The notes: generated by a model not told the origin, from the letters alone. 64,000 bases of DNA from Candidatus Binatia bacterium (GCA_963664395.2 OY761159.2:3776001-3840000), one strand, 5' to 3'. Counted from the stretch's first letter, positions 731 to 54,255 are shown. A program made the numbers and translations.

Positions 731-1522
731 TTGGCAGAGACACAATGGAAGGAACGGAAAGTAAAAGTCGGTGACGCTGAGTTGGCCGTTATTGAGGGAG
801 GTTCTGGAAGTCCCCTGATCGTTCTGCATGAAGAACTCGGCCACCCTGGCATCACGAACTGGCATAACGAACTGGCTCGGGACCATACGGTCATGATTCC
901 TTTACATCCAGGGTTCGGTCGGACCGAGCGCGTCGAGTGGGTGAGTAATGTACGTGACTTGGCTGGTCTGTACGGTCGCGCGCTACGAGAACATAATCTC
1001 GCGCCGGCAAATGTTATTGGCTTTTCTATAGGCGGCTGGATTGCTGCTGAGATGGCTGCCTGCAACGCTGCTCAGTTTCGACGTATGGTATTGGTTGCGC
1101 CTTTTGGGATACGCCCGCCGGAAGGGGATATCGCGGACATGTTTCAGGTTACGGCTAAAGCCTACCTGGATGCGAGTGTGAAGGATATTCAAGGCACCCC
1201 GGAATTTGCAAAGCTGTATGGCGGAGAACCAACTCCGGAGCAGTTCGAAGCGTGGGACGACGCGCGGGCTGAAAGTGCACGCGTTGCGTGGGTGCCGTAT
1301 ATGTTCAACCCCAGCCTAGGGCCTCTGCTTACGTGTGGCGACCAAGTCAAGACACTGATTCTCTGGGGCCGGGACGACCAAATCGCTCCGGTGAGCGCGG
1401 CCGCTGTCTATCAGAAATCTATTGCTGGCTCTGAACTGATCGTGTTGGACGGGTGTGGACATCGCCCCGAGGTCGAACAGACTCATACGTTTGTTGAGAA
1501 GGTTCGGAGTTTTCTGGCGTAA
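731..1522 (+). CDS. Alpha/beta fold hydrolase
   Basis: GFSIGG nucleophile elbow, LWGRDD, GCGH catalytic His; TTG start after AGGAGG. Confidence 0.85.
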   Translation: MAETQWKERKVKVGDAELAVIEGGSGSPLIVLHEELGHPGITNWHNELARDHTVMIPLHPGFGRTERVEWVSNVRDLAGLYGRALREHNLAPANVIGFSIGGWIAAEMAACNAAQFRRMVLVAPFGIRPPEGDIADMFQVTAKAYLDASVKDIQGTPEFAKLYGGEPTPEQFEAWDDARAESARVAWVPYMFNPSLGPLLTCGDQVKTLILWGRDDQIAPVSAAAVYQKSIAGSELIVLDGCGHRPEVEQTHTFVEKVRSFLA

Positions 1523-16947: not shown

Positions 16948-16987
16948 CAAGGTAGCGGCCCTCCGATACTAGCAGACCCAAATTTTG

Positions 16988-17160
16988 CCTAAGGTGCCCA
17001 TACGGGGCGAAAAAGGGAAGTCGGTGCGAAGCCGGCGCGGTCCCGCCACTGTGATGGGGGAGCCTGTCTCGATTATGCCACTGCCATGCTGGTGGGAAGG
17101 CCGCTGACAGGCGTTGAGGTGCGAACCTCTGAACCCCTAAGCCAGGAAACCTGCCTGAAG
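16988..17160 (+). ncRNA. Cobalamin (AdoCbl) riboswitch
   Basis: AGGGAAgtcGGTG...CCCGCCACTGTG...GCCACTG...GGGAAGG...AGCCAGGAAACCTGCC (B12 box) upstream of a TonB-dependent receptor. Confidence 0.92.
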
Positions 17161-17321
17161 CCCTTAACCAGCCTCTCCGCGGAGGGAGAAAGGTTACAGC
17201 GTGTTATCTCTTTGGCTACGCGGGCTATTCCGACCCACTCCGGGCGGCTTTCAGCAGTCTCCAATACACGCCACGCCTGTTTCTCTTCTCTTCAAGCGGA
17301 AGGTTTCTCCGAGGAGGGGAG

Positions 17322-45210: not shown

Positions 45211-46080
45211 CTATTGGCTACTCCCTCGTGCCGTGCCCGGACTTTGCAAGTATTCCAGCAGCTCTGAGTTGGAATTGAGGACTAAGGTTGTATCGCTACT
45301 CAGGATCTTCTCATACGCCTGGAGCCGACGGGTGAAGGCGTAGAATTCTGCATCTTTGCCAAAAGCGTTAGCATAAATACTGGTCGCCTCAGCATCGCCT
45401 CCCCCTTTGAGTTTTTCACTCGTCTCATACGCCGTGGCAAGGATCACTTCCCGTTCCCGGTCCGCTACCGCTCGCAGCTGTTGAGCTTGCTCTTCCCCCT
45501 CCGCCCGGTATCGCTTGGCAATGCGTTCCCGCTCCGCCCGCATCCTGGCGAACACGCTGGCCTGCACTTCGTCGGGCAGGTCGAGTCGCTTGATGCGAAC
45601 ATCGGTTACCTCAATCCCAAAGGTCTTGGCCGTCTCACGCGTAGCCTTGGTCACGGTTGCCATAATCTCTTCACGATTCTCGCGAATCAGATCGAGGAAA
45701 TCGTGCGTCGCTATTTCTTGCCGAAATCGGGCGGCAATCATGTCATCCAAGCGCGCCACTGCTCGTATTTGATCTCGTACGCTGCGATAGTATTGGAGGG
45801 GGTCTTGAATACGCCAGCGTGAGACATGATCGACGAGGACGCGTTTCTTATCAAGCGTAATGTATTCGGCCGCACGCGCATCGGTTGTGAGCACGCGCTT
45901 CTCAAAGCGCACCAGATTCTGGATACCGGGCAGCTTAAAATAGAGTCCCGGCTCTTGGATGATACGTTTGGGATTGCCAAACTGGACAACCATGCCTTGC
46001 TCCCACTCGCCAATGGTGAAGACGGTCTGCGTAGCAACAACGACAAAGACTAATCCCAATCCAACCAGTAATCGTGTCAT
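45211..46080 (-). CDS. hflC: Protease modulator HflC (SPFH family)
   Basis: PGLYFKLP, TLDKKRVLVD, DVRIKRLDLP, RMRAERERIA, EFYAFTRRLQAY. Confidence 0.9.
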   Translation of the reverse strand: MTRLLVGLGLVFVVVATQTVFTIGEWEQGMVVQFGNPKRIIQEPGLYFKLPGIQNLVRFEKRVLTTDARAAEYITLDKKRVLVDHVSRWRIQDPLQYYRSVRDQIRAVARLDDMIAARFRQEIATHDFLDLIRENREEIMATVTKATRETAKTFGIEVTDVRIKRLDLPDEVQASVFARMRAERERIAKRYRAEGEEQAQQLRAVADREREVILATAYETSEKLKGGGDAEATSIYANAFGKDAEFYAFTRRLQAYEKILSSDTTLVLNSNSELLEYLQSPGTARGSSQ

Positions 46081-46139
46081 CCTCTATCTCCATCTGATGG
46101 GCTGCCCCCTCTAGGGATTACTCCCAATGCTCAGGAAGC

Positions 46140-46370
46140 CGGCGCGTTCTTTCAACAAGAGATTCGTTTCGGACAGGTAAGTGACGGACCTCCGCGTTGG
46201 GGGGGACGACCCCTCCACGCGGTGAGGCGTCATAAACCGGTCAACGATGGAGGACAGCGACTTAGTGCGGTGGATAAAGCGTTAAGCGGAGATCGCCCAA
46301 GGTTGGCTCATTCACCCTCCTCCTGTGTTGGAGTGCTGTCAAGGGGAGAGTCGACGGACGTTGACGGATA
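46140..46370 (-). promoter_or_regulatory. Conserved promoter/leader module, copy C (upstream of hflC)
   Basis: TTGACA(46342-46337)-N17-GAGGGT; CACTAAG..CCTCCATCGTTGACCGGTTTATGACGCCTCACCGCGTGGAGG. Confidence 0.75.
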
Positions 46371-46654
46371 CGGTTTCTATCAGATGCCGGTAGTCTTTCT
46401 TTCTCCTAGCAATGGGAGGAATGGATTTATGACCTTCCGAAAAGTCCGGCAAGGGACAGGGCGTCGAAGGGCCGTCCAGAGGAAGGTCCAATTCTTCGGG
46501 TGGAGTAGGGAGGAGACAGCAGGCGGGTTTGACCCTGCCTCACAAAGTGAGACAGGGGGACTCTTATTTAATCATCGTCCTCGTCGCCATCCATCTCTTC
46601 AAAAGCGACAAGTATACTCTTACGGAAGCGGTTGGACAGCTCCGCTTACCTGCA

Positions 46655-46957
46655 CTACCAACGCCGCTCGCGACCGCCACCGGATGAGCGATTCCCTCCT
46701 GAGCGTGGCTCGCGAGGTTTTGCCTCGTTGACCTTCAAGGCTCGGCCTTGGAGCTCATAGCCATCGAACTGCTCGATGGCCGCTTGGGCTTCGCTTGCGC
46801 TCCCCATCTCGATAAACCCAAACCCACGCGAGCGACCAGTGTCTCTATCCATAATGATATTGGCGGACGTGACGGTCCCGGCCTGACCGAACAATGTCTC
46901 GAGGTCAGGAGTCGTCGTCTCAAAGGAGAGATTACCGATATACAAATTCGTTGCCAT
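46655..46957 (-). CDS. RRM-domain RNA-binding protein with Gly-rich tail
   Basis: RNP2 LYIGNL, RNP1 RGFGFIEM, LKVNEAKPR. Confidence 0.95.
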   Translation of the reverse strand: MATNLYIGNLSFETTTPDLETLFGQAGTVTSANIIMDRDTGRSRGFGFIEMGSASEAQAAIEQFDGYELQGRALKVNEAKPREPRSGGNRSSGGGRERRW

Positions 46958-47284
46958 ACAAACCTCCATGCGAATATGAAAAGGCCCCAAGAACCACGAG
47001 TGCAGTTCCAGGGGCCTTGGCAATCTCGAACTAAACTCAGCGAACAAACAAAGTCAACTATACGTTTGTGATTAGCAGACTCTTAGTCTGGACACAAGCC
47101 ACGCAGGAGACTGGCTCAGCCATGACAATCCGGTCCACGCTGGCGTCCTGATTGGTAGCAGCCCCTCGGGCCGGTCAAAGTGACTCATCTTCGTCCTTGA
47201 GGGATTTACGATAAGGTTGGGGACAATGCTTGCCAGCGTTTCCTTTTCTCCATGCAGCCTCGACGTGACAGTGTGTGTTCTTGC

Positions 47285-47905
47285 TTAGACGACCCAGGCG
47301 AACGAGGTTGCCTCAGCAGGCAGAGGTTGCTCCTCTCGTCTCGTTCCTACAGGAAACGTGGACGAAGTAGGCTGGGCGTATCCACGCGGCAGGCCGGTAC
47401 GGATAAAATCCGGATCAAGATCGAGATACGAGCAGATACTCTCAAAGGCGTATAAGTGGTCCGTATCCCGTGCCCAAATCCACTCTTGGACCTCGCCGAA
47501 CAACCGTTGCCCCCGCCGCGTGTGGGCCTGGCAATATCTGTGGTAGGTATGGATCGCTTCCTTGAGGACTGCCAGTAACAGGCGTCGCTCTCCGGTCCAC
47601 ACCGCCAGCGATTCCCGAGCCGGGAGAGCAAACTGGTCTGGTGTTAAGATGTCCTGCTCCCATGGGGAGCGCTTCAAGCTCCTCGCACTTGGAGAACCCG
47701 TGGAACCTTGGCCAGAGGGTGGACTAGAGACAGACGTGCTGTTTGGGACGAGTTTGATTGTATCGGTAGCCGCGGCAATAGTCGGCTCCTCGTCGATGTC
47801 GTATCCCTGCGGCGGCTTTCCTTCGTTGCCGTCCACGTATGGAGGAATAGTGGAGCCGAGTTCTTTCAGTAATATATCCACTTTGGGCAGAGAGTCTTCT
47901 GACAC
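47285..47905 (-). CDS. Uncharacterised protein (ERRLLLAVL..AFESICSYLDLDP motif)
   Basis: GTG start after AAGGAG; low-complexity N-terminal half, conserved-looking C-terminal domain. Confidence 0.65.
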   Translation of the reverse strand: MSEDSLPKVDILLKELGSTIPPYVDGNEGKPPQGYDIDEEPTIAAATDTIKLVPNSTSVSSPPSGQGSTGSPSARSLKRSPWEQDILTPDQFALPARESLAVWTGERRLLLAVLKEAIHTYHRYCQAHTRRGQRLFGEVQEWIWARDTDHLYAFESICSYLDLDPDFIRTGLPRGYAQPTSSTFPVGTRREEQPLPAEATSFAWVV

Positions 47906-48092
47906 AACCGGAGCTCCTTGTCGAGGAAAGGGACACCTCCACACGGTGAGACGTTATAAACCGGTCAACAATGGAGGATGGCTGCTTAGTGAGAAGGAAG
48001 AAAATAAGCGTAAATCGCCCATAATTGGCCCGCTCACTCTCCTCCTATGCCGGAGTGGTGTCAAGGGTAGGGCTGGCGAAGGCTGACGGATA
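47860..48092 (-). promoter_or_regulatory. Conserved promoter/leader module, copy B
   Basis: TTGACA(48064-48059)-N17-GAGAGT; CACTAAGCAGCCATCCTCCATTGTTGACCGGTTTATAACGTCTCACCGTGTGGAGG. Confidence 0.75.
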
Positions 48093-48148
48093 GGAACCGG
48101 TTAAGAGACCGGGGCTATGCCAGCAGCATAAGGTGAAACCGTAACTTT

Positions 48149-48187
48149 CAGTGGCACCCAACAGTGGCACCCAACAGTGGCACCCAA
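48149..48187. repeat. 13-bp tandem repeat x3
   Basis: CAGTGGCACCCAA x3, perfect. Confidence 0.85.
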
Positions 48188-48347
48188 GGAGGGAAAAACT
48201 ATGCGAGAGGAGGGCTGAACCATTTCAGCAAGGGAAATGTAATTGAGCGGAACACGGCCCGCTCGGTCAATCTTCTTCGCCATGCTGGCCCTGAGTGCAA
48301 GGCTGCCCATTGTCGTGAAAATACGACTCTGTGGTGCAATTCATTCG

Positions 48348-50309
48348 TTACTCCCCTAGAGCATGAAATTTCTCTACATAGAGCAGGACTGCCCAAACAA
48401 ATGCCGAGTGACTCCAGGTGAGCGGGGATACTGAAAGGGTATCCCCTTTTATGGGATGTACCTGCTCGGCCAGTACCCCTGAAGGAAGCGCATTCTTCGC
48501 GCACCATTCAAGGTACGGGAGCGCTTCGTGCAGTTGCTGAAGATTCTCTGTCCGCATGATTTCATATTCTCCTAACCAGAGCGTCGAGATAAACCAGGGA
48601 TTACCGGGAACATCCTGCGGAACGTCATGCGCCCGTTGATACTGGTTATTCTGATAGCGCGCGACCCCCCCGATTGGAGTATGCGACAAGAGATTGCGCC
48701 GGATGGCCTCGACCGTCTTAACGACCCGGGCATCCCTCGGAGGTAACACGCCGAAAGTCACCAGTCCGAGCAGGCTGACGTCAATGACTTCGTCAAGTAC
48801 ATAGCCGTTCGCAGTGCGGTACCCCGAGCGGGCATATCTTTGATACTCGGCATGGTACAGATGCTCGACAATGCCCTCCGTCATGTGATCGGCTACAGCG
48901 TTATACGCCTCCGCGCGGGACGAATCCTGAAACACGCTTGCAAAATGTGCTGCCCCGCGGAGGCCACTGATGACCGCCGCGACGGTATACGTGTGGACGC
49001 CGTACCGCTCTTCCCACAGGTCGTAGGAAGGCGTAGGCAAAAGAGTCTCCGCATCTCGATACGCAACCAGAAAATCTGCACATTTGAGAATAAATGTCTC
49101 GTACAGGGGACGGATGAACTCAATATCCTTTGAGCACTCGTAGTGAATCCAGAGGGCCCACAACAGCAATGCCGTCGAGTCTTCCTGGATGGGTAAAACC
49201 TCTTTGCCATCTAACACCCACGCATGCCAATTGCTGGCCAGCGACCCGTCCGGGTTATAGTGTTGAAAGAGATAGCCGCCTTCTGCAAGCGCCCGGCTAC
49301 AAAAGTTGAAGAATTGCCTACACAGCTCGGCATAGCCGGCCTTCTCCAGCGCGGCCGCGACAAAGGCGCCATCGCGGCCCCACATATAGGAATACGTGTC
49401 TCCGCCAAACCGCACGATGTCCGAATCATTGGCCGCGATAATGGCGCCCCGGTTGTCGATCTGAGAGCGTAAGACGAGCAGGCTGCGGTTGAAGATATGG
49501 GTAACGGTCGGTGGCAAGTCTCCAAAAGGGCGCGCTTCTTTTTGGACCCAGGCCCGCCAGTAGTTTGACGTTCGCTCAATCAGTGCTGGCGGTGTGTGTT
49601 CGACAACACGCCTATTGAGATCTGCCACTTCGTCGTAGTGCGTGCCGGCGGCCAGCCAGTAAAATGCGCTGCCGTTTCCCCCCGGAGGGAGTGCTAACTG
49701 TGCCCCAACAGTAGACTCGGCATATCCCCAAGCAATCGGACTCCCGACGAGTTCGCCATCTTCCGCGTCTTTCCAGGAAGAGGGCCTTCCTGCCGCGTCC
49801 TTCACGCCGCAGGAGAAATAATCGGCTACTTTACTTACCGCTGTACAACAATTGGCGAGGAAATAGCGGTTGAGCTTGTAGTGGATAATGGACTCGGTCC
49901 GCGGATCAAAATACGCTGTATCACCGATCTCGTGACCATACAGGTGAAAGTCATGGCTAAAAAAAAGCCGGACGTCTCGAGCGCGCTCCGCCAAATCTAT
50001 GACCTGGATATGCTTGACATACACATTCAGCTGGAAATCAACAGCATCCTGACAGCGTAGCGCTAAGCCTAACCTCTCGTGTTTCAGAAAGGTCTCGGTT
50101 ACGAGGCTATCATCTCGATACCGGAGGTCTTTTTCCCACTCCGGTCCCATCCAGGCGAAGCAACCATCTACCCAAATGCCGAATCGAAACTCATGGCCCT
50201 GCGTATGATTCTCTTGCCCTATCCAGGGAAAGTAGATGTCACGGATGCGGTAATCCAGGTCAAAATTGACCAGAAGATTTCCGTTGCTGACCGGAATGTC
50301 TCTGGGCAT
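48348..50309 (-). CDS. Glycoside hydrolase family 15 (glucoamylase/trehalase-like)
   Basis: GAIIAA, YSYMWGRDG, QEDST, DLWEE, GVLAEQV, PLTWSH. Confidence 0.92.
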   Translation of the reverse strand: MPRDIPVSNGNLLVNFDLDYRIRDIYFPWIGQENHTQGHEFRFGIWVDGCFAWMGPEWEKDLRYRDDSLVTETFLKHERLGLALRCQDAVDFQLNVYVKHIQVIDLAERARDVRLFFSHDFHLYGHEIGDTAYFDPRTESIIHYKLNRYFLANCCTAVSKVADYFSCGVKDAAGRPSSWKDAEDGELVGSPIAWGYAESTVGAQLALPPGGNGSAFYWLAAGTHYDEVADLNRRVVEHTPPALIERTSNYWRAWVQKEARPFGDLPPTVTHIFNRSLLVLRSQIDNRGAIIAANDSDIVRFGGDTYSYMWGRDGAFVAAALEKAGYAELCRQFFNFCSRALAEGGYLFQHYNPDGSLASNWHAWVLDGKEVLPIQEDSTALLLWALWIHYECSKDIEFIRPLYETFILKCADFLVAYRDAETLLPTPSYDLWEERYGVHTYTVAAVISGLRGAAHFASVFQDSSRAEAYNAVADHMTEGIVEHLYHAEYQRYARSGYRTANGYVLDEVIDVSLLGLVTFGVLPPRDARVVKTVEAIRRNLLSHTPIGGVARYQNNQYQRAHDVPQDVPGNPWFISTLWLGEYEIMRTENLQQLHEALPYLEWCAKNALPSGVLAEQVHPIKGDTLSVSPLTWSHSAFVWAVLLYVEKFHALGE

Positions 50310-50316
50310 GACTTCC

Positions 50317-51555
50317 TTACGGGGTGAGGTGCCACTGACGGAGTGGCACATTGAGTGCCAAGGGCTGTCCGACCGAGCTAAACACGGGTCTGGGGGCGAG
50401 TTGCTCATACAAGGCGGCGTACCCCTCGGCCATTCTTTGAATGGAAAAATATGTTTTGACGTGCCTCCGACAATTCCAACGATTAATCTGTTCGATGCGT
50501 CCGACCGCCTGCACCATAGCCTCGACTGAATCCACGACAAACCCGGTCTCTCCATGTTTCACGATCTCAGGAACAGAGCCTTCGCCGAACGCCAGGACGG
50601 GGGTGCCAGACGCCATTGATTCAATCAAGACGAGCCCAAAAGGCTCACCCCAGCGGATCGGGAATAGGGTTGCCTGTGCGTGCCGATACCAGTGCTTCGT
50701 CGCCGCAGTGTCGAGTTCTCCAATATAGATAATCTGTTTGTCAGAGGACAGGAGCGGCTTCATCACCCTGTCGTAATAGTCGCCATTTACAGGCTGTTGG
50801 CCAACGTCAACAGTAAGATCAATCGAGTGCTGCAAACGCGTAAAAAAGGCCCTGTCTTCTTTCTTGTTCTGGACGCAGCCGGCAAGGATCAGCTTTGCTC
50901 CAGACTGTTTCGCCACTGCTATGGCGAGATCCTGTCCCTTGACCTCGGCGATCCGTCCAATGCTGAAAAGATAATTCCCCCTATTCGATTCTTTTTTGAA
51001 TAAATAGTCTTCCACGTCTATCCCGTGCGGGACGGTTTTCGTCACCGGCAGCAGGCCAGTATACTGCCGTCTCTGATAATCGCTTATCGCAACGCAATGC
51101 AGCAAAGGGCGCGGCAATGGACCGGGGTGCTGCTCATGGAACTCAGGGACACCGCTGTACTGACCGGGTACGTGCAGAGTCATCACGATGGGCACGGGCG
51201 AATGAAAGCTGCCCGTGTACACGCGATTAAACCATTCGTGCATATGTATGATGTCGATGTCACCCATCTGCGCGCGCGCCAACGCCTGTGAGAGATGGCG
51301 ATCAACCAGAGCCTGTCCCTCCGGGGTATCTACGTGGCAATAGTTGCCAAGGCTGTGCGCAACGGTCTCGTACTTTTCACCGGTCACTGTAGACTCTGCA
51401 GAGCACGCCACGATTGACCGGTGTCCAAGGGCATGAAGACCTTTATCAATATTGTAAATGACTGCTTCTATAGGGCCATAACCGCTCTGGGACGTAATCG
51501 GCTTACTGAGGGTCGCCACGTGCAGAATAGTGAACCGTTTCGATGCTGCGGGCAT
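50317..51555 (-). CDS. Glycosyltransferase family 4
   Basis: GYGPIE, GRIAEVKG, EPFGLVLIESMASGTPV. Confidence 0.92.
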   Translation of the reverse strand: MPAASKRFTILHVATLSKPITSQSGYGPIEAVIYNIDKGLHALGHRSIVACSAESTVTGEKYETVAHSLGNYCHVDTPEGQALVDRHLSQALARAQMGDIDIIHMHEWFNRVYTGSFHSPVPIVMTLHVPGQYSGVPEFHEQHPGPLPRPLLHCVAISDYQRRQYTGLLPVTKTVPHGIDVEDYLFKKESNRGNYLFSIGRIAEVKGQDLAIAVAKQSGAKLILAGCVQNKKEDRAFFTRLQHSIDLTVDVGQQPVNGDYYDRVMKPLLSSDKQIIYIGELDTAATKHWYRHAQATLFPIRWGEPFGLVLIESMASGTPVLAFGEGSVPEIVKHGETGFVVDSVEAMVQAVGRIEQINRWNCRRHVKTYFSIQRMAEGYAALYEQLAPRPVFSSVGQPLALNVPLRQWHLTP

Positions 51556-51879
51556 ACTTTTGCTATCCTCCTACCGCTCGATATGAGCGCGTCGTTGTCA
51601 GGGGTTTCCGCTTCAGTTCTGGCACGCACGACGAGAAGGGGCTGGTCGCTTTGCGCCACTATCCCTGTGGGTCCGCCCATACGGGAATGTCATTGCTCTC
51701 CCCGCGGAGAGGGTTCCAATGGGGTTGTCGACTCTGGGGTTGTCGACTCTGGTGTTCTCGCCACCCGGTCTGTTATGACCGTCTCCGGCGGTGAACGGTT
51801 TAGGACAAGAGCGGAACACCCGGGTTGGGGCGCAGCGTAAGACATATTTTTACGCTGCACGTCGTTTGTCTTAGTGTGG

Positions 51880-52167
51880 TCAGAATGAGAGGGTTCCCGT
51901 CGGGAGCGGGGAGTACAAGCTGAGCTCACTCCGTGTCACGTTCACGAGCGCCACAAGGAGTAACCATCCCCACCGCTGGCCTGAAGCGCCATCGCGGTCC
52001 AGTGGTCCTGCTCCGTCAGCGAGCAGCTCAACTGTGGCGAGAGCCTGACGTAACCGGAGACCGGCTGTTTGTATAACGGTTTTGTCATTTCTCGACCCGC
52101 GCGCCTGACGGAACCGGTCGAGTTCTTCACGGAGAGAAACCACTCGGGACAGAAAATCTTCTGTCAT
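51880..52167 (-). CDS. Hypothetical protein (95 aa)
   Basis: AAAGGTGG RBS; MTEDFLSRVVSLREEL N-terminus resembles that of the 47905 ORF. Confidence 0.5.
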   Translation of the reverse strand: MTEDFLSRVVSLREELDRFRQARGSRNDKTVIQTAGLRLRQALATVELLADGAGPLDRDGASGQRWGWLLLVALVNVTRSELSLYSPLPTGTLSF

Positions 52168-52328
52168 ACCTACCACCTTTCTTAAGTGAAGGACGCCTGC
52201 GGGCCGCGAGGTGTCAGCCACTGGTAAGCAACAATGGATGATAGGTACGTATGGGATGGGAAACGTATGGGGTACGGACCGTCCAAGGCTGGTAGGAGCA
52301 CCCTCGTCTCAATACGCCTGCTTGTCAA
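52120..52328 (-). promoter_or_regulatory. Conserved promoter/leader module, diverged copy D
   Basis: TTGACA(52328-52323)-N17-GAGGGT; CCAGCCTTGGACG; TATCATCCATTGTTG..TGACACCTC. Confidence 0.55.
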
Positions 52329-52429
52329 GCGACACAAAAGATTTTCTCAGATAGGAGAATACTTATGGGAGAGATGTTCATCTTATATCGGGTACAGCTA
52401 TCACTTTATACGATATTTTAAGAGTCGCC

Positions 52430-52620
52430 TTGACACGGCGACGGCTCAGGCGGAGAGTGGTTAAGCCAACCCTGGGTGATCCCGGCTTACATCTTTTCCC
52501 GTCACACTAAGCAGCTATCTTCCATTGTTGACCGGTTTTTGACTCCTCACCGTGTGGAGGTGTCGCTTTCTCCGACACGGAGGTCCGGTCATGTCCGTCA
52601 ACGCTCTGTCCAAAGCGCAT
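52430..52620 (+). promoter_or_regulatory. Conserved promoter/leader module, copy A
   Basis: TTGACA(52430)-N17-GAGAGT; CACTAAGCAGCTATCTTCCATTGTTGACCGGTTTTTGACTCCTCACCGTGTGGAGG. Confidence 0.75.
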
Positions 52621-52671
52621 AATGGGGTGCCCCCTCTGGCGCGTGCTCTTCCTGATCTGGCTCTCCTCTAA
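52591..52671 (+). CDS. Putative leader peptide (26 aa)
   Basis: GGAGG-N7-ATG; MSVNALSKAHNGVPPLARALPDLALL*. Confidence 0.4.
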   Translation: MSVNALSKAHNGVPPLARALPDLALL

Positions 52672-52917
52672 TGACTCCGGCTAGCTCCTGTAGAGGTACA
52701 CTATGTCTATCCCGACTATGCTGTTCGCGAGCTGGCGATATTTCCGGGCAAAATTCAACCTGGATGACCACCAAAAGTGTAGCCGCACGTACTGCGCCAG
52801 AGGGCCTGCATTGACATTATTTCATCGCTGCATGCCACGGGAGAAAATCCGTGCCGAGAAAGCGACCTCTGAAACGACAGCAGTGTTGAATGGTTTTTCA
52901 CTTTGGGAGACACTAGC

Positions 52918-53238
52918 ATGAACGAGGGAGAGGCAGGATTATTTGTGGGGATAAAAATCTCACCGCGGCTACAGAGGGAGTTGGATAACTGTAACCGTGG
53001 GACCGAGCGCTACCTCAAAGAGGGTCAGCCCGAGGCGCTCAAGATTGTGACTCTGGGGAGGGACAAGCTTATTGGCCGGTTCTTGCGAGACGGATTCCCC
53101 GTTAGTGGCCTCGATAATGTCAGTCGTAATGTTCGCAGCGTCGTCACACGCATGACTCAGGGGCTCCGGTTAGCGGAGGATGCCGTCTGTATATACGCCG
53201 ACTCCACCGTTCCTCTATCACCTTTGGGACACGAGTAA
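52918..53238 (+). CDS. Hypothetical protein
   Basis: GGGAG RBS; 5 nt upstream of the stomatin gene. Confidence 0.6.
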
Positions 53239-53243
53239 CCGAT

Positions 53244-54038
53244 ATGTTCGGCATAGGGCCACTCGTAATATTCTTGGTCATCGCGGTCGGATTACTGATT
53301 GGCGGGGTGAAGATTCTCCAGGAGTATGAGCGCGCGGTTATTTTCCGCCTTGGACGGTTCGTGCCCTACCGCGGACCTGGGATTATCTACGTGATCCCCC
53401 TCGTGGAGCGCATGGTCAGAGTAGACTTGCGCACCATCACCATGGACACCCCTCCGCAGGACGTGATCACCCGTGATAATGTCTCGGTCGAGGTGAACGC
53501 GGTGCTCTACTTTCGGGTGCTTGATCCGGGCAAAGCGATCGTAGAAATCGAGAACTATCTCTTTGCCACTGCGCAGTTGGCGCAAACCACTCTGCGCAGT
53601 GTGTGCGGTCAGGCGCAGCTCGACGATCTACTGACGAACCGCGATAAGATTAACGCCCAACTACAGGATATTATTGATTCCCAGACCGACCCCTGGGGAG
53701 TGAAGGTGTCTCTGGTCGAGGTCAAGAATATTGACTTGCACCAGGACATGCAGCGGGTGATTGCCAGACAAGCGGAGGCGGAACGCGAACGCCGGGCCAA
53801 GGTCATCAACGCTGAGGGAGAATTCCAGGCGGCGCAACGGTTGGCCGACGCGGCACTGATCATCGAGCTGCACCCGGTTGCGCTCCAGTTGCGCTACCTC
53901 CAGACTCTCTCCGAAATCGCGACAAAGAATAACTCGACCATCCTGTTCCCTATACCAATTGATGTGCTTCGGCCTTTTCTTGGTAGCCTGGGCGGATCGT
54001 CATCACCCGGCGACTCGACCGATAGTGCAACCACGTAA
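53244..54038 (+). CDS. Slipin/stomatin (SPFH) family protein
   Basis: [50 protein letters not shown]. Confidence 0.95.

Positions 54039-54182: not shown

Positions 54183-54255
<73 letters not shown>

Follow-up and report, generated by a model that had tools for sequence, protein, structure and literature searches.

A probable leader RNA copied together with its promoter in front of unrelated genes in Candidatus Binatia

The window analysed here is a 64,000-nucleotide (nt) stretch of DNA from Candidatus Binatia bacterium (GCA_963664395.2 OY761159.2:3776001-3840000), whose genome (G000; 5.04 Mb, 14 contigs) we searched together with those of its relatives. It holds a gene cluster with hflC, a gene for an RRM RNA-binding protein, GT4 and GH15 genes and an SPFH/stomatin-type operon, and within this cluster lies a repeated element made up of a promoter and a leader of ~105 nt. 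A preliminary description of the same DNA had placed four colinear copies there (A–D), and all four were located and aligned at those positions. The genome total was five rather than four, as a further copy (E) was found by BLAST outside the window. In what follows, g1 denotes the genus of the window and g3 a second genus of the same Binatia family. The copies and the cores of their leaders, the latter with the scores from covariance models, are as follows.

52430-52593, plus strand: copy A, whole (alignment)
48064-47903, minus strand: copy B, whole (alignment)
46342-46170, minus strand: copy C, whole (alignment)
52328-52165, minus strand: copy D, whole (alignment)
G000:C1:2280585-2280732, strand not given: copy E (BLAST), 1.5 Mb from the cluster and before a gene for a membrane peptide of 35 amino acids (aa)
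52460..52565, plus strand: leader core of copy A, a long hairpin (P1) with a pyrimidine-rich loop and then a second hairpin (P2) (117.9 bits; consensus fold)
47931..48034, minus strand: leader core of copy B (104.8 bits)
46207..46312, minus strand: leader core of copy C (110.7 bits)
52191..52298, minus strand: leader core of copy D, the most diverged (84 bits)

Mean column identity was 63% across the four-copy alignment (354 columns) and 80% across the trimmed leader core of 104-108 nt (core alignment). The copies could be aligned from ~30 nt upstream of TTGACA to ~20 codons inside the downstream reading frame. With copy A as the query against G000, BLAST returned copies B (E = 3.3e-28), C (E = 1.1e-23) and E (E = 2.2e-23), and the only other matches in the whole 5.04-Mb genome were two with E values of 2.7 and 5.0. 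Copy D was not recovered by this search over G000; a covariance model recovered it at 84 bits, a score that is partly circular as the model was built from these same five sequences. The repetition of the copies is real and lies well past chance level. The motifs listed in the preliminary description were all found (TTGACA-N17-GAG(A/G)GT, GCCAAC..TGGG, GCTTA/TAAG, TCCATYGTTGACCGGTTT and CCTCACCG..GGAGG), as was the similarity of copies B and C ahead of their -35 boxes, which extends over ~35-45 bp.

Each cluster copy opens with a candidate promoter, assigned from the sequence.

52430..52458, plus strand: copy A promoter, TTGACA 52430-52435, 17-nt spacer, GAGAGT 52453-52458; kept in the ortholog of genome G021
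52300..52328, minus strand: copy D promoter, TTGACA 52328-52323, 17-nt spacer, GAGGGT 52305-52300
48036..48100, minus strand: copy B promoter, TTGACA 48064-48059, GAGAGT 48041-48036, plus the upstream stretch in common with C
46314..46378, minus strand: copy C promoter, TTGACA 46342-46337, GAGGGT 46319-46314, plus the upstream stretch in common with B

All five copies have a perfect -35 TTGACA and a spacer of exactly 17 nt, followed by GA(G/A)(A/G)GT (GANRGT). Copies D and A diverge from each other across an AT-rich spacer of ~100 bp. The promoter proposed earlier thus stands as regards TTGACA and the N17 spacing. Its -10 box fits less well, since it agrees with TATAAT at three of six positions only (A2, A4 where present, and T6), short of our threshold of at least four, and escapes a consensus scan. 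The corresponding hexamer in g3 is GATAGT. By eye, the regions upstream of the tRNA genes of G000 show ordinary TAnnnT -10 boxes. Genome-wide, TTGACA-N17-GANRGT occurs eight times in G000, and five of these occurrences are the copies. An extra site, TTGACA-N17-GAGAGT at G000:C1:3714994 (minus strand), has the same flanks (CTCTTGACA...GGAGAGAGTGG) without the leader; it lies ~61 kb before the window and has an ATG within ~20 nt downstream. Ahead of the -35 box, copies B (48065-48100, minus strand) and C (46343-46378, minus strand) each hold two direct repeats in 10-bp phase (TCCGTCAGCC/TTCGCCAGCC in B, TCCGTCAACG/TCCGTCGACT in C), which look like a response-regulator binding site. Copies A, D and E are without repeats of this type, and what A and D have in common ahead of the -35 box is an AT-rich stretch.

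Behind the leaders lie ribosome-binding regions, each with a Shine-Dalgarno sequence (SD) or its remnant, and open reading frames (ORFs) of different kinds.

52566..52671, plus strand: downstream of copy A, hairpin GUGUCG/CGACAC, SD GGAGG (52579-52583) and a 26-codon ORF (52591-52671) left over from the N-terminus of the B type
53244-54038, plus strand: SPFH/stomatin-type gene of the copy A operon, which follows the 26-codon ORF and ORFs of 72 aa and 106 aa
47285..47930, minus strand: downstream of copy B, SD GGAG (47917-47914), start codon GTG at 47905 and a 206-aa ORF without a known family
45211..46206, minus strand: downstream of copy C, a remnant SD and codons without a start codon (46206-46081), then hflC (46080-45211)
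51880..52167, minus strand: downstream of copy D, an ORF of ~95 aa with no Pfam or NCBIfam family, upstream of the GT4 (50317-51555) and GH15 (48348-50555) genes

Searches with Pfam and NCBIfam bore out the downstream genes named in the preliminary description, namely HflC, a 206-aa protein without a family, an ORF of ~95 aa upstream of GT4-GH15, and an SPFH/stomatin-type operon. HflC was identified by TIGR01932 (241.6 bits against a cut-off of 134.4). Its gene lies behind the C-type leader in the 6 genomes with that type and is split in one of them, G021 (33 + 249 aa). The 206-aa ORF follows the B-type leader in all 7 genomes having that leader; its protein has no Pfam or NCBIfam family, and Atlas contains only unnamed clusters for it. 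Next after this gene comes that of the RRM RNA-binding protein (Pfam RRM_1, E 9.8e-21). Copy E precedes, with a leader of ~200 nt, the gene for the 35-aa peptide MFGIPLEAIGIVSFILVAVFAMYRADQKKKSASNN, which has one hydrophobic helix and a basic tail.

The reading of the element as a leader-peptide module did not survive. The similarity past the SD comes from the N-terminus of the B gene (SEDSLPKVDILLKEL), which was duplicated, and is no shared functional unit; there is therefore no shared leader peptide, only a duplicated unit that reached into the opening codons of gene B. This N-terminus persists at the beginning of the D ORF (TEDFLSRVVSLREEL), in A as the 26-codon ORF and in C as the startless codons. 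Past the first ~17 residues, no significant similarity between the B and D proteins was found (by eye; BLASTP E 8.7). Where the A operon of the window has a first ORF of 72 aa, that of G021 has one of 249 aa, and the D ORF of 98 aa has a counterpart of 70 aa in G021, which suggests that the genes behind the young copies are in flux.

To follow the element through its relatives, covariance models (R1 and R2) were run with strict filters over sampled genomes, so that a count of zero means not found, absence being unproven. Copies in relatives, a check proposed with the preliminary description, were present in 22 related species. These were 18 of the 27 g1 species (1-5 copies each) and 4 of the 8 g3 species (one copy each), while none was found in 19 genomes from the other 8 genera of the family or in 106 genomes from 18 other families of the class. 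The 35-aa peptide gene (tblastn) occurred in the same 18 g1 and 4 g3 genomes, and a single-copy leader lay directly upstream of it in every one of them, so that the E-type copy is the ancestral one. The B-type was found in 7 g1 genomes and the C-type in 6, whereas A and D were found only in G000 and its close relative G021. In other species, the core before the B gene is almost identical to copy A of G000. This indicates that A was copied from a B-type leader and that the B core of G000 diverged afterwards. The cluster copies arose when a unit of promoter, leader and initial codons of one gene was duplicated. Scans with the 18-nt motif TCCATYGTTGACCGGTTT (55 loci in genome contigs, 36 in metagenome contigs) added little diversity; on re-scoring 43 motif loci with the model, 9 were true members, all from close relatives, and the remainder were chance matches from other phyla. 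In G019, the most divergent g1 species, the peptide gene (L029, ~1395-1500, minus strand) has ATA in place of ATG, with an ATG nine codons upstream. It has also lost its stop codon, its leader core is 63% identical, and the locus may be decaying or remodelled.

The pattern of sequence conservation points to selection on the leader. At the E-type locus we compared G000 with 12 other g1 species. Apart from G019 (63% for the core, 52% for the promoter), identity was 84-89% in the leader core and 74-88% in the promoter, against 53-64% in the intergenic DNA just upstream and 75-89% at third codon positions of the neighbouring gene. Relative to g3, the core was still 75% identical, though the upstream neighbour there is unrelated. 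Variation was also uneven along the leader. Mean column entropy was 0.31 bits at paired positions (21 of 56 invariant) and rose to 0.76 in the internal loops, 0.92 in the apical loop and 1.30 in the 5' tail. Evenly spread changes, which the preliminary description had named as the mark of a decaying duplication, were thus not seen. Together with the higher identity of the core than of the adjacent intergenic DNA, this excludes recent duplicates in neutral decay as an explanation for the E, B and C types.

In every copy, the leader starts a few bases past the -10 box and runs for ~105 nt. RNAalifold folded it into P1, a long interrupted hairpin, and P2, a second and short one (GAC.CCUC/GAGG.GUC). 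The helices of P1 are GCC/GGU, AAC/GUU, UGGG/UCCA, GAU/AUC and GCUUA/UAAGC, and its apical loop of 16-20 nt is pyrimidine-rich in every copy and variable in sequence. Only a few nt separate the start of P1 from the predicted 5' end. The SD and start codon follow the core after 25-30 nt in A, B and D and after ~65 nt in E. Among 38 distinct sequences, standard pairs filled 96.0% of 1063 cells, compared with 93.3 ± 0.3% in shuffles (0/500 reached the observed value) and 34-56% when the partners were slid. Five pairs had changed on both sides (17/500 shuffles reached five), covering 24 cells (0/500 shuffles). One of them, an added pair at columns 24-60, was A-U in 18 sequences, C-G in 12, G-C in 2 and unpaired in 5. 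Another, at the base of P2, had gone from A-U to G-C in g3. Copy D retains P1 with altered pairs, in that a shifted helix, GUAC/GUAC, stands in place of GCUUA/UAAGC, along with a G-C to A-U change (by hand, alignment A6). Many of the exchanges are G-U to A-U or U-A to U-G, which preserve pairing on the sense RNA strand only. Invariant or almost so, though unpaired in P1, are a GACC bulge, a GGUUU junction and several internal-loop bases. As far as these comparisons go, the P1/P2 fold is supported, short of proof.

Three further ideas about the leader were set aside. An intrinsic attenuator was rejected as the general mechanism, since a terminator-like call was obtained in copy B only (48022-48004, a small alternative hairpin UGGGCG/CGCUUA with a U-rich loop) and the other tails are too U-poor by eye. 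A third hairpin of the E-type leader (UGCCGG/CUGGCA) was rejected as part of the shared module because five species weaken its pairing without compensation, with one A-U to G-C exchange in its favour. A coding reading of the leader met stop codons in the frames read and loop indels of 2-4 nt (by eye, no formal test).

Six RNA-library runs contain contigs that hold part of the region, and four of these, from two studies, were compared. Some of the runs holding the region are labelled sponge metagenome. Contigs cover the leaders, so the lack of transcription that would have spoken against the preliminary description was not observed. The predicted transcription starts (+1) are ~52465 for A (plus strand) and ~52293, ~48029 and ~46307 for D, B and C (minus strand). 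At copy B, contigs of three of the four runs ended at 48014, 48015 and 48019, and at copy C those of two of the four ended at 46301 and 46292. These ends lie 6-15 nt inside the predicted starts, although contigs cannot prove a start. At copy A, a contig of run X16 started at 52480, 15 nt past the predicted +1, and in two runs of one study contigs of the A operon started at 52599, just past the leader; at copy D, one contig ended at 52271. The ends give a weak but consistent hint that transcription starts just past the GANRGT box. Summed contig depth was 12-72 over hflC/RRM/B and 0-9 over GH15/GT4, a measure that cannot rank genes. Two further observations came from these libraries. A contig of the RRM message (46316-46654, minus strand) ran ~340 nt past the RRM stop codon and ended at 46316, the -10 box of copy C, which suggests that this message has a long 3' untranslated region abutting the copy C promoter. 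Between the D ORF and the GT4 gene (51720-51750), a 15-bp tandem duplication (ggggttgtcgactct twice) had one unit missing from the contigs of three of the four runs, pointing to a strain polymorphism.

Taken together, the element is very probably a selected, transcribed, structured cis-acting leader with its own promoter. As to how it acts, we lean, with reserve, towards a specific switch in which P1 competes with an anti-SD:SD helix and thereby controls exposure of the ribosome-binding site. The cassette would consist of the promoter (perfect -35, 17-nt spacer, weak -10 GANRGT) and the ~105-nt leader. P1 (GCCAAC/GUUG, UGGG/UCCA, GAU/AUC, GCUUA/UAAGC) would form first, during transcription. 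Its 3' strand (...AUCU-A-UCCUCCA-UYGUUGA-CCGG...) would be the anti-SD and, once the ribosome-binding region is transcribed, would leave P1 and pair with that region. The resulting anti-SD:SD helix, the predicted ground state, would block translation (OFF). P1 would then be the anti-anti-SD helix, and whatever stabilises it would keep the gene translatable (ON). Candidate stabilisers are a ligand or protein at the invariant GACC bulge, the GGUUU junction and the internal-loop bases, or else the order and kinetics of folding. The cassette arose ahead of the 35-aa membrane-peptide gene and was later copied, with the first codons of one gene, to places ahead of hflC, the SPFH operon and other ORFs in some species; the genes of the cluster would then be co-regulated. 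The repeats, their conservation and narrow distribution, the pattern of pairing and the presence in RNA libraries come straight from the data, whereas where transcription starts, the switching between ON and OFF and that a trigger exists at all are inferred.

The folding predictions that favour this switch are of several kinds. Folded alone, the leaders of A, C and E adopt P1 as the minimum-free-energy structure. Folded through the start codon, 5 of 9 leaders drop P1 and pair its 3' strand with the ribosome-binding region, namely the two of B-type, the g3 E-type leader and, out of three E-type leaders from g1, those of G000 and L026. The predicted pairings are UAUCCUCC with GGAGGAUA for E of g1, UCCU-A-UCUUCCA with UGGAAGA-AGGA for E of g3, CUCC-A-UUGUUGA with UCGACAA-GGAG plus AGCC with GGUU at the start codon for B, and ACCUAUCAUC with GGUGGUAGGU for D. 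With constrained folding, which restricts the pairing direction only and was uninformative for A and E_L015 (identical structure for both states), the SD-paired state lay 3-10 kcal/mol below the P1 state in 5 of 8 leaders (B, E of G000, E of L026, g3); in copy D the two states were within 1 kcal/mol. Cognate duplexes were predicted at -13.5 kcal/mol for E of g1 (-7.6 to -9.0 with the g3 and D regions), -14.6 for E of g3 (-4.7 to -13.0 with the regions of other lineages) and -13.9 for D (-4.3 to -11.2 with the regions of other lineages). The changes are matched at positions that are unpaired in P1 (UCCUCC:GGAGGA, UCUUCC:GGAAGA, UCAUC:GGUGG). In the predicted structures, these lineage-matched changes in the anti-SD and the ribosome-binding region are the pattern of a translational switch.

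Several observations weigh against this account, at the level of the promoter, of the fold and of the switch itself. A consensus sigma-70 promoter scan of 45900-53300 called no sites. One contig of run X15 passes through both the B and C promoters, and another of that run passes through the A/D promoters. Carry-over of DNA into the RNA libraries is possible, and contig depth offers no firm counter-argument. Covariation is thin, as the sequences come from close kin, most stem columns are invariant and alignment A6 was fitted to the model. Duplexes just as good were obtained with shuffled anti-SD strands in 1-55% of trials, as is to be expected of pyrimidine-rich strands facing an SD region rich in purines. 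The base-by-base compensation between g1 and g3 hinges on the placement of one gap in the SD region, and the cognate duplex of copy A is weak (-7.6 kcal/mol). Two E-type minimum-free-energy folds pair the apical loop, not the 3' strand of P1, with the SD; such a pairing can be drawn for each type and is a possibility expected from base composition alone. Nor is temperature a trigger by these predictions, and an RNA thermometer was rejected, as the predicted mean unpaired probability of the SD region shifts by no more than 0.10 over 20-50 °C in all 9 leaders. Finally, copy C has a remnant SD without a start codon beside it, hflC has its own ~90 nt downstream, and the core is still conserved in 6 species. 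SD occlusion is therefore not the whole function, and stability, processing or protein binding would also be involved.

That last point touches a reading in which the leader RNA is selected for some other role altogether, as a protein platform (for the RRM protein, or for S1 at the pyrimidine loop as a standby site) or as a 5' stabiliser or processing determinant on which the half-life or localisation of membrane-protein messages would depend. It would account for the copy C core being kept with no adjacent start codon, for P1 beginning a few nt from the predicted 5' end, and for the near-invariance of bases unpaired in P1 (GACC bulge, GGUUU junction, internal loops), which suggests recognition by a partner. 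The RRM gene lies inside the cluster, between B and C, a link based on gene neighbourhood only, and the A-operon contigs that begin at 52599, past the leader, in two runs could mean processing. We nevertheless consider a role without occlusion rather unlikely, as it leaves unexplained both the joint change, in three lineages, of P1-unpaired anti-SD positions with the ribosome-binding region and the alternative helix as the predicted ground state.

The conserved unit might instead act as DNA, a promoter with a long transcribed operator for a repressor or activator, whose RNA folds would be incidental. Extreme conservation of the primary sequence (e.g. TCCATYGTTGACCGGTTT), leaving little variation for testing pairs, would suit this, as would the hexamers and spacing conserved in all copies, the 10-bp-phased repeats ahead of the -35 boxes of B and C, and the one TTGACA-N17-GAGAGT site that has no leader. 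An operator would not explain why variation falls in predicted loops rather than in stems, nor why G-U/A-U and U-A/U-G exchanges and double changes preserve pairing on the sense RNA only. The element also lies entirely downstream of the -10 box and within RNA-library contigs, and no obvious long palindrome or operator repeat was seen in the core alignment by eye, no repeat search having been run; we regard this explanation as improbable. A further reading takes the ancestral copy as the silent structured leader of a type I toxin-like hydrophobic peptide and the cluster copies as by-products. Its attraction is confined to the E-type copy, where the peptide, 35 aa long with a basic tail and a single hydrophobic helix, is encoded behind a structured ~200-nt leader whose predicted ground state buries the SD. 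Yet the gene is single-copy with the same upstream neighbour in 13 g1 species (91-99% identity at codon positions 1+2) and also occurs in g3 in a different neighbourhood. The leader is not dedicated to it, being also found before hflC, the SPFH operon and two ORFs without a known family, and its G-U pairs put the conserved fold on the sense strand. This makes a toxin origin very unlikely. Least of all do we expect the copies to be functionless, neutral relics of a recent segmental duplication. The restriction of A and D to two very close genomes (G000 and G021) and the differing lengths of their downstream ORFs (72 vs 249 aa; 98 vs 70 aa), which suggest flux, are what such relics would show, but the E-type is orthologous across two genera with its core conserved above the flanking intergenic DNA, the B-type persists in 7 species and the C-type in 6, and the substitutions are strongly non-uniform.

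The proposed competition between P1 and the anti-SD:SD helix resembles several known systems in part. In translational riboswitches, such as the add adenine and thiM TPP riboswitches, an upstream helix cannot form together with the anti-SD:SD helix. By prediction, the leader is like their expression platforms in that a stabilised upstream helix would free the ribosome-binding site. A conserved structured domain in the 5' leader (P1/P2 kept in 38 distinct sequences) was found, as was, by prediction only, a mutually exclusive helix covering the SD. Unlike these riboswitches, the leader matches no Rfam aptamer and is a single long interrupted hairpin instead of a multi-helix junction, and its gene set (SPFH/HflC, a small membrane peptide, unassigned ORFs) suggests no metabolite. 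It is conceivable, though we think it unlikely, that P1, with its GACC bulge, internal loops and long pyrimidine loop, serves as sensor in an orphan riboswitch of a new class, or in a new protein-RNA switch, and so turns on a membrane-integrity regulon (HflC, SPFH/stomatin operon, 35-aa peptide) that grows by copying of the cassette. In RNA thermometers (ROSE, fourU), a pyrimidine-rich strand pairs with the SD in the leaders of stress-type genes. The leader is predicted to share this pairing; it differs in its much greater length, its competing helix, its strong duplexes (-12 to -21 kcal/mol) and its flat accessibility from 20 to 50 °C, and none of the Rfam thermometer families scored on the copies even at E<=10. 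The mRNAs of type I toxins (tisB, hok, aapA1) carry a small hydrophobic ORF behind a long, structured, SD-burying leader. The E-type leader is similar, and its single-stranded upstream stretch could be a ribosome standby site. Unlike type I toxin leaders, it precedes a conserved single-copy gene with the same g1 neighbour and is shared with SPFH genes. The motifs of Weinberg and Breaker in Rfam are lineage-restricted, multi-copy cis-regulatory RNAs found by comparative genomics. Our element is like them in its narrow range, several copies per genome, position upstream of genes, conserved fold and modest covariation, and unlike them in that its promoter travels with it, as do the first codons of a gene where the copies are derived.

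As the preliminary description had supposed, the element belongs to no known Rfam family, and none of the 4227 models of Rfam 15 matched any copy. None of the findings that would have refuted that description turned up, though no search aimed at IS ends in particular was made. At gathering thresholds, only a cobalamin riboswitch and a tRNA passed in the whole window. At E<=10, three chance-level matches (microRNA and small nucleolar RNA families) were obtained in 45900-52900, none overlapping a copy. The cobalamin riboswitch (RF00174) lies at 16975-17172 (plus strand; 103.8 bits). The tRNA gene lies at 54183-54255 (minus strand), just downstream of the SPFH operon, and scores 65.5 bits with Rfam; aragorn calls it tRNA-Ala. 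In G000, aragorn also calls a tRNA-Pyl and a tRNA-SeC (C1:1053530 and C1:2573201), the tRNA-Pyl being putative. In those parts of the literature that were available, no Binatota riboswitch was found, and none of the matches listed dealt with SPFH, stomatin or hflC genes together with a riboswitch candidate or RNA motif. The earlier proposal of an undescribed and duplicated cis-regulatory RNA or promoter cassette is supported and can be refined to a promoter plus leader RNA with an origin outside the cluster. It is a candidate new leader RNA family, and its hallmark is that promoter, leader and first codons move jointly and recruit genes.

If this account is true, phylum Binatota would have a new structured leader RNA family, with a reach limited to two uncultured bacterial genera. 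Simple predictions follow from the switch model and are testable in a heterologous host. The SPFH/HflC membrane-scaffold genes and the 35-aa peptide would come under one post-transcriptional element, giving a handle on the timing of their synthesis. The cluster would also be a clear example from nature of how a regulon grows when a promoter-leader cassette, first codons included, is copied to sites ahead of unrelated genes.

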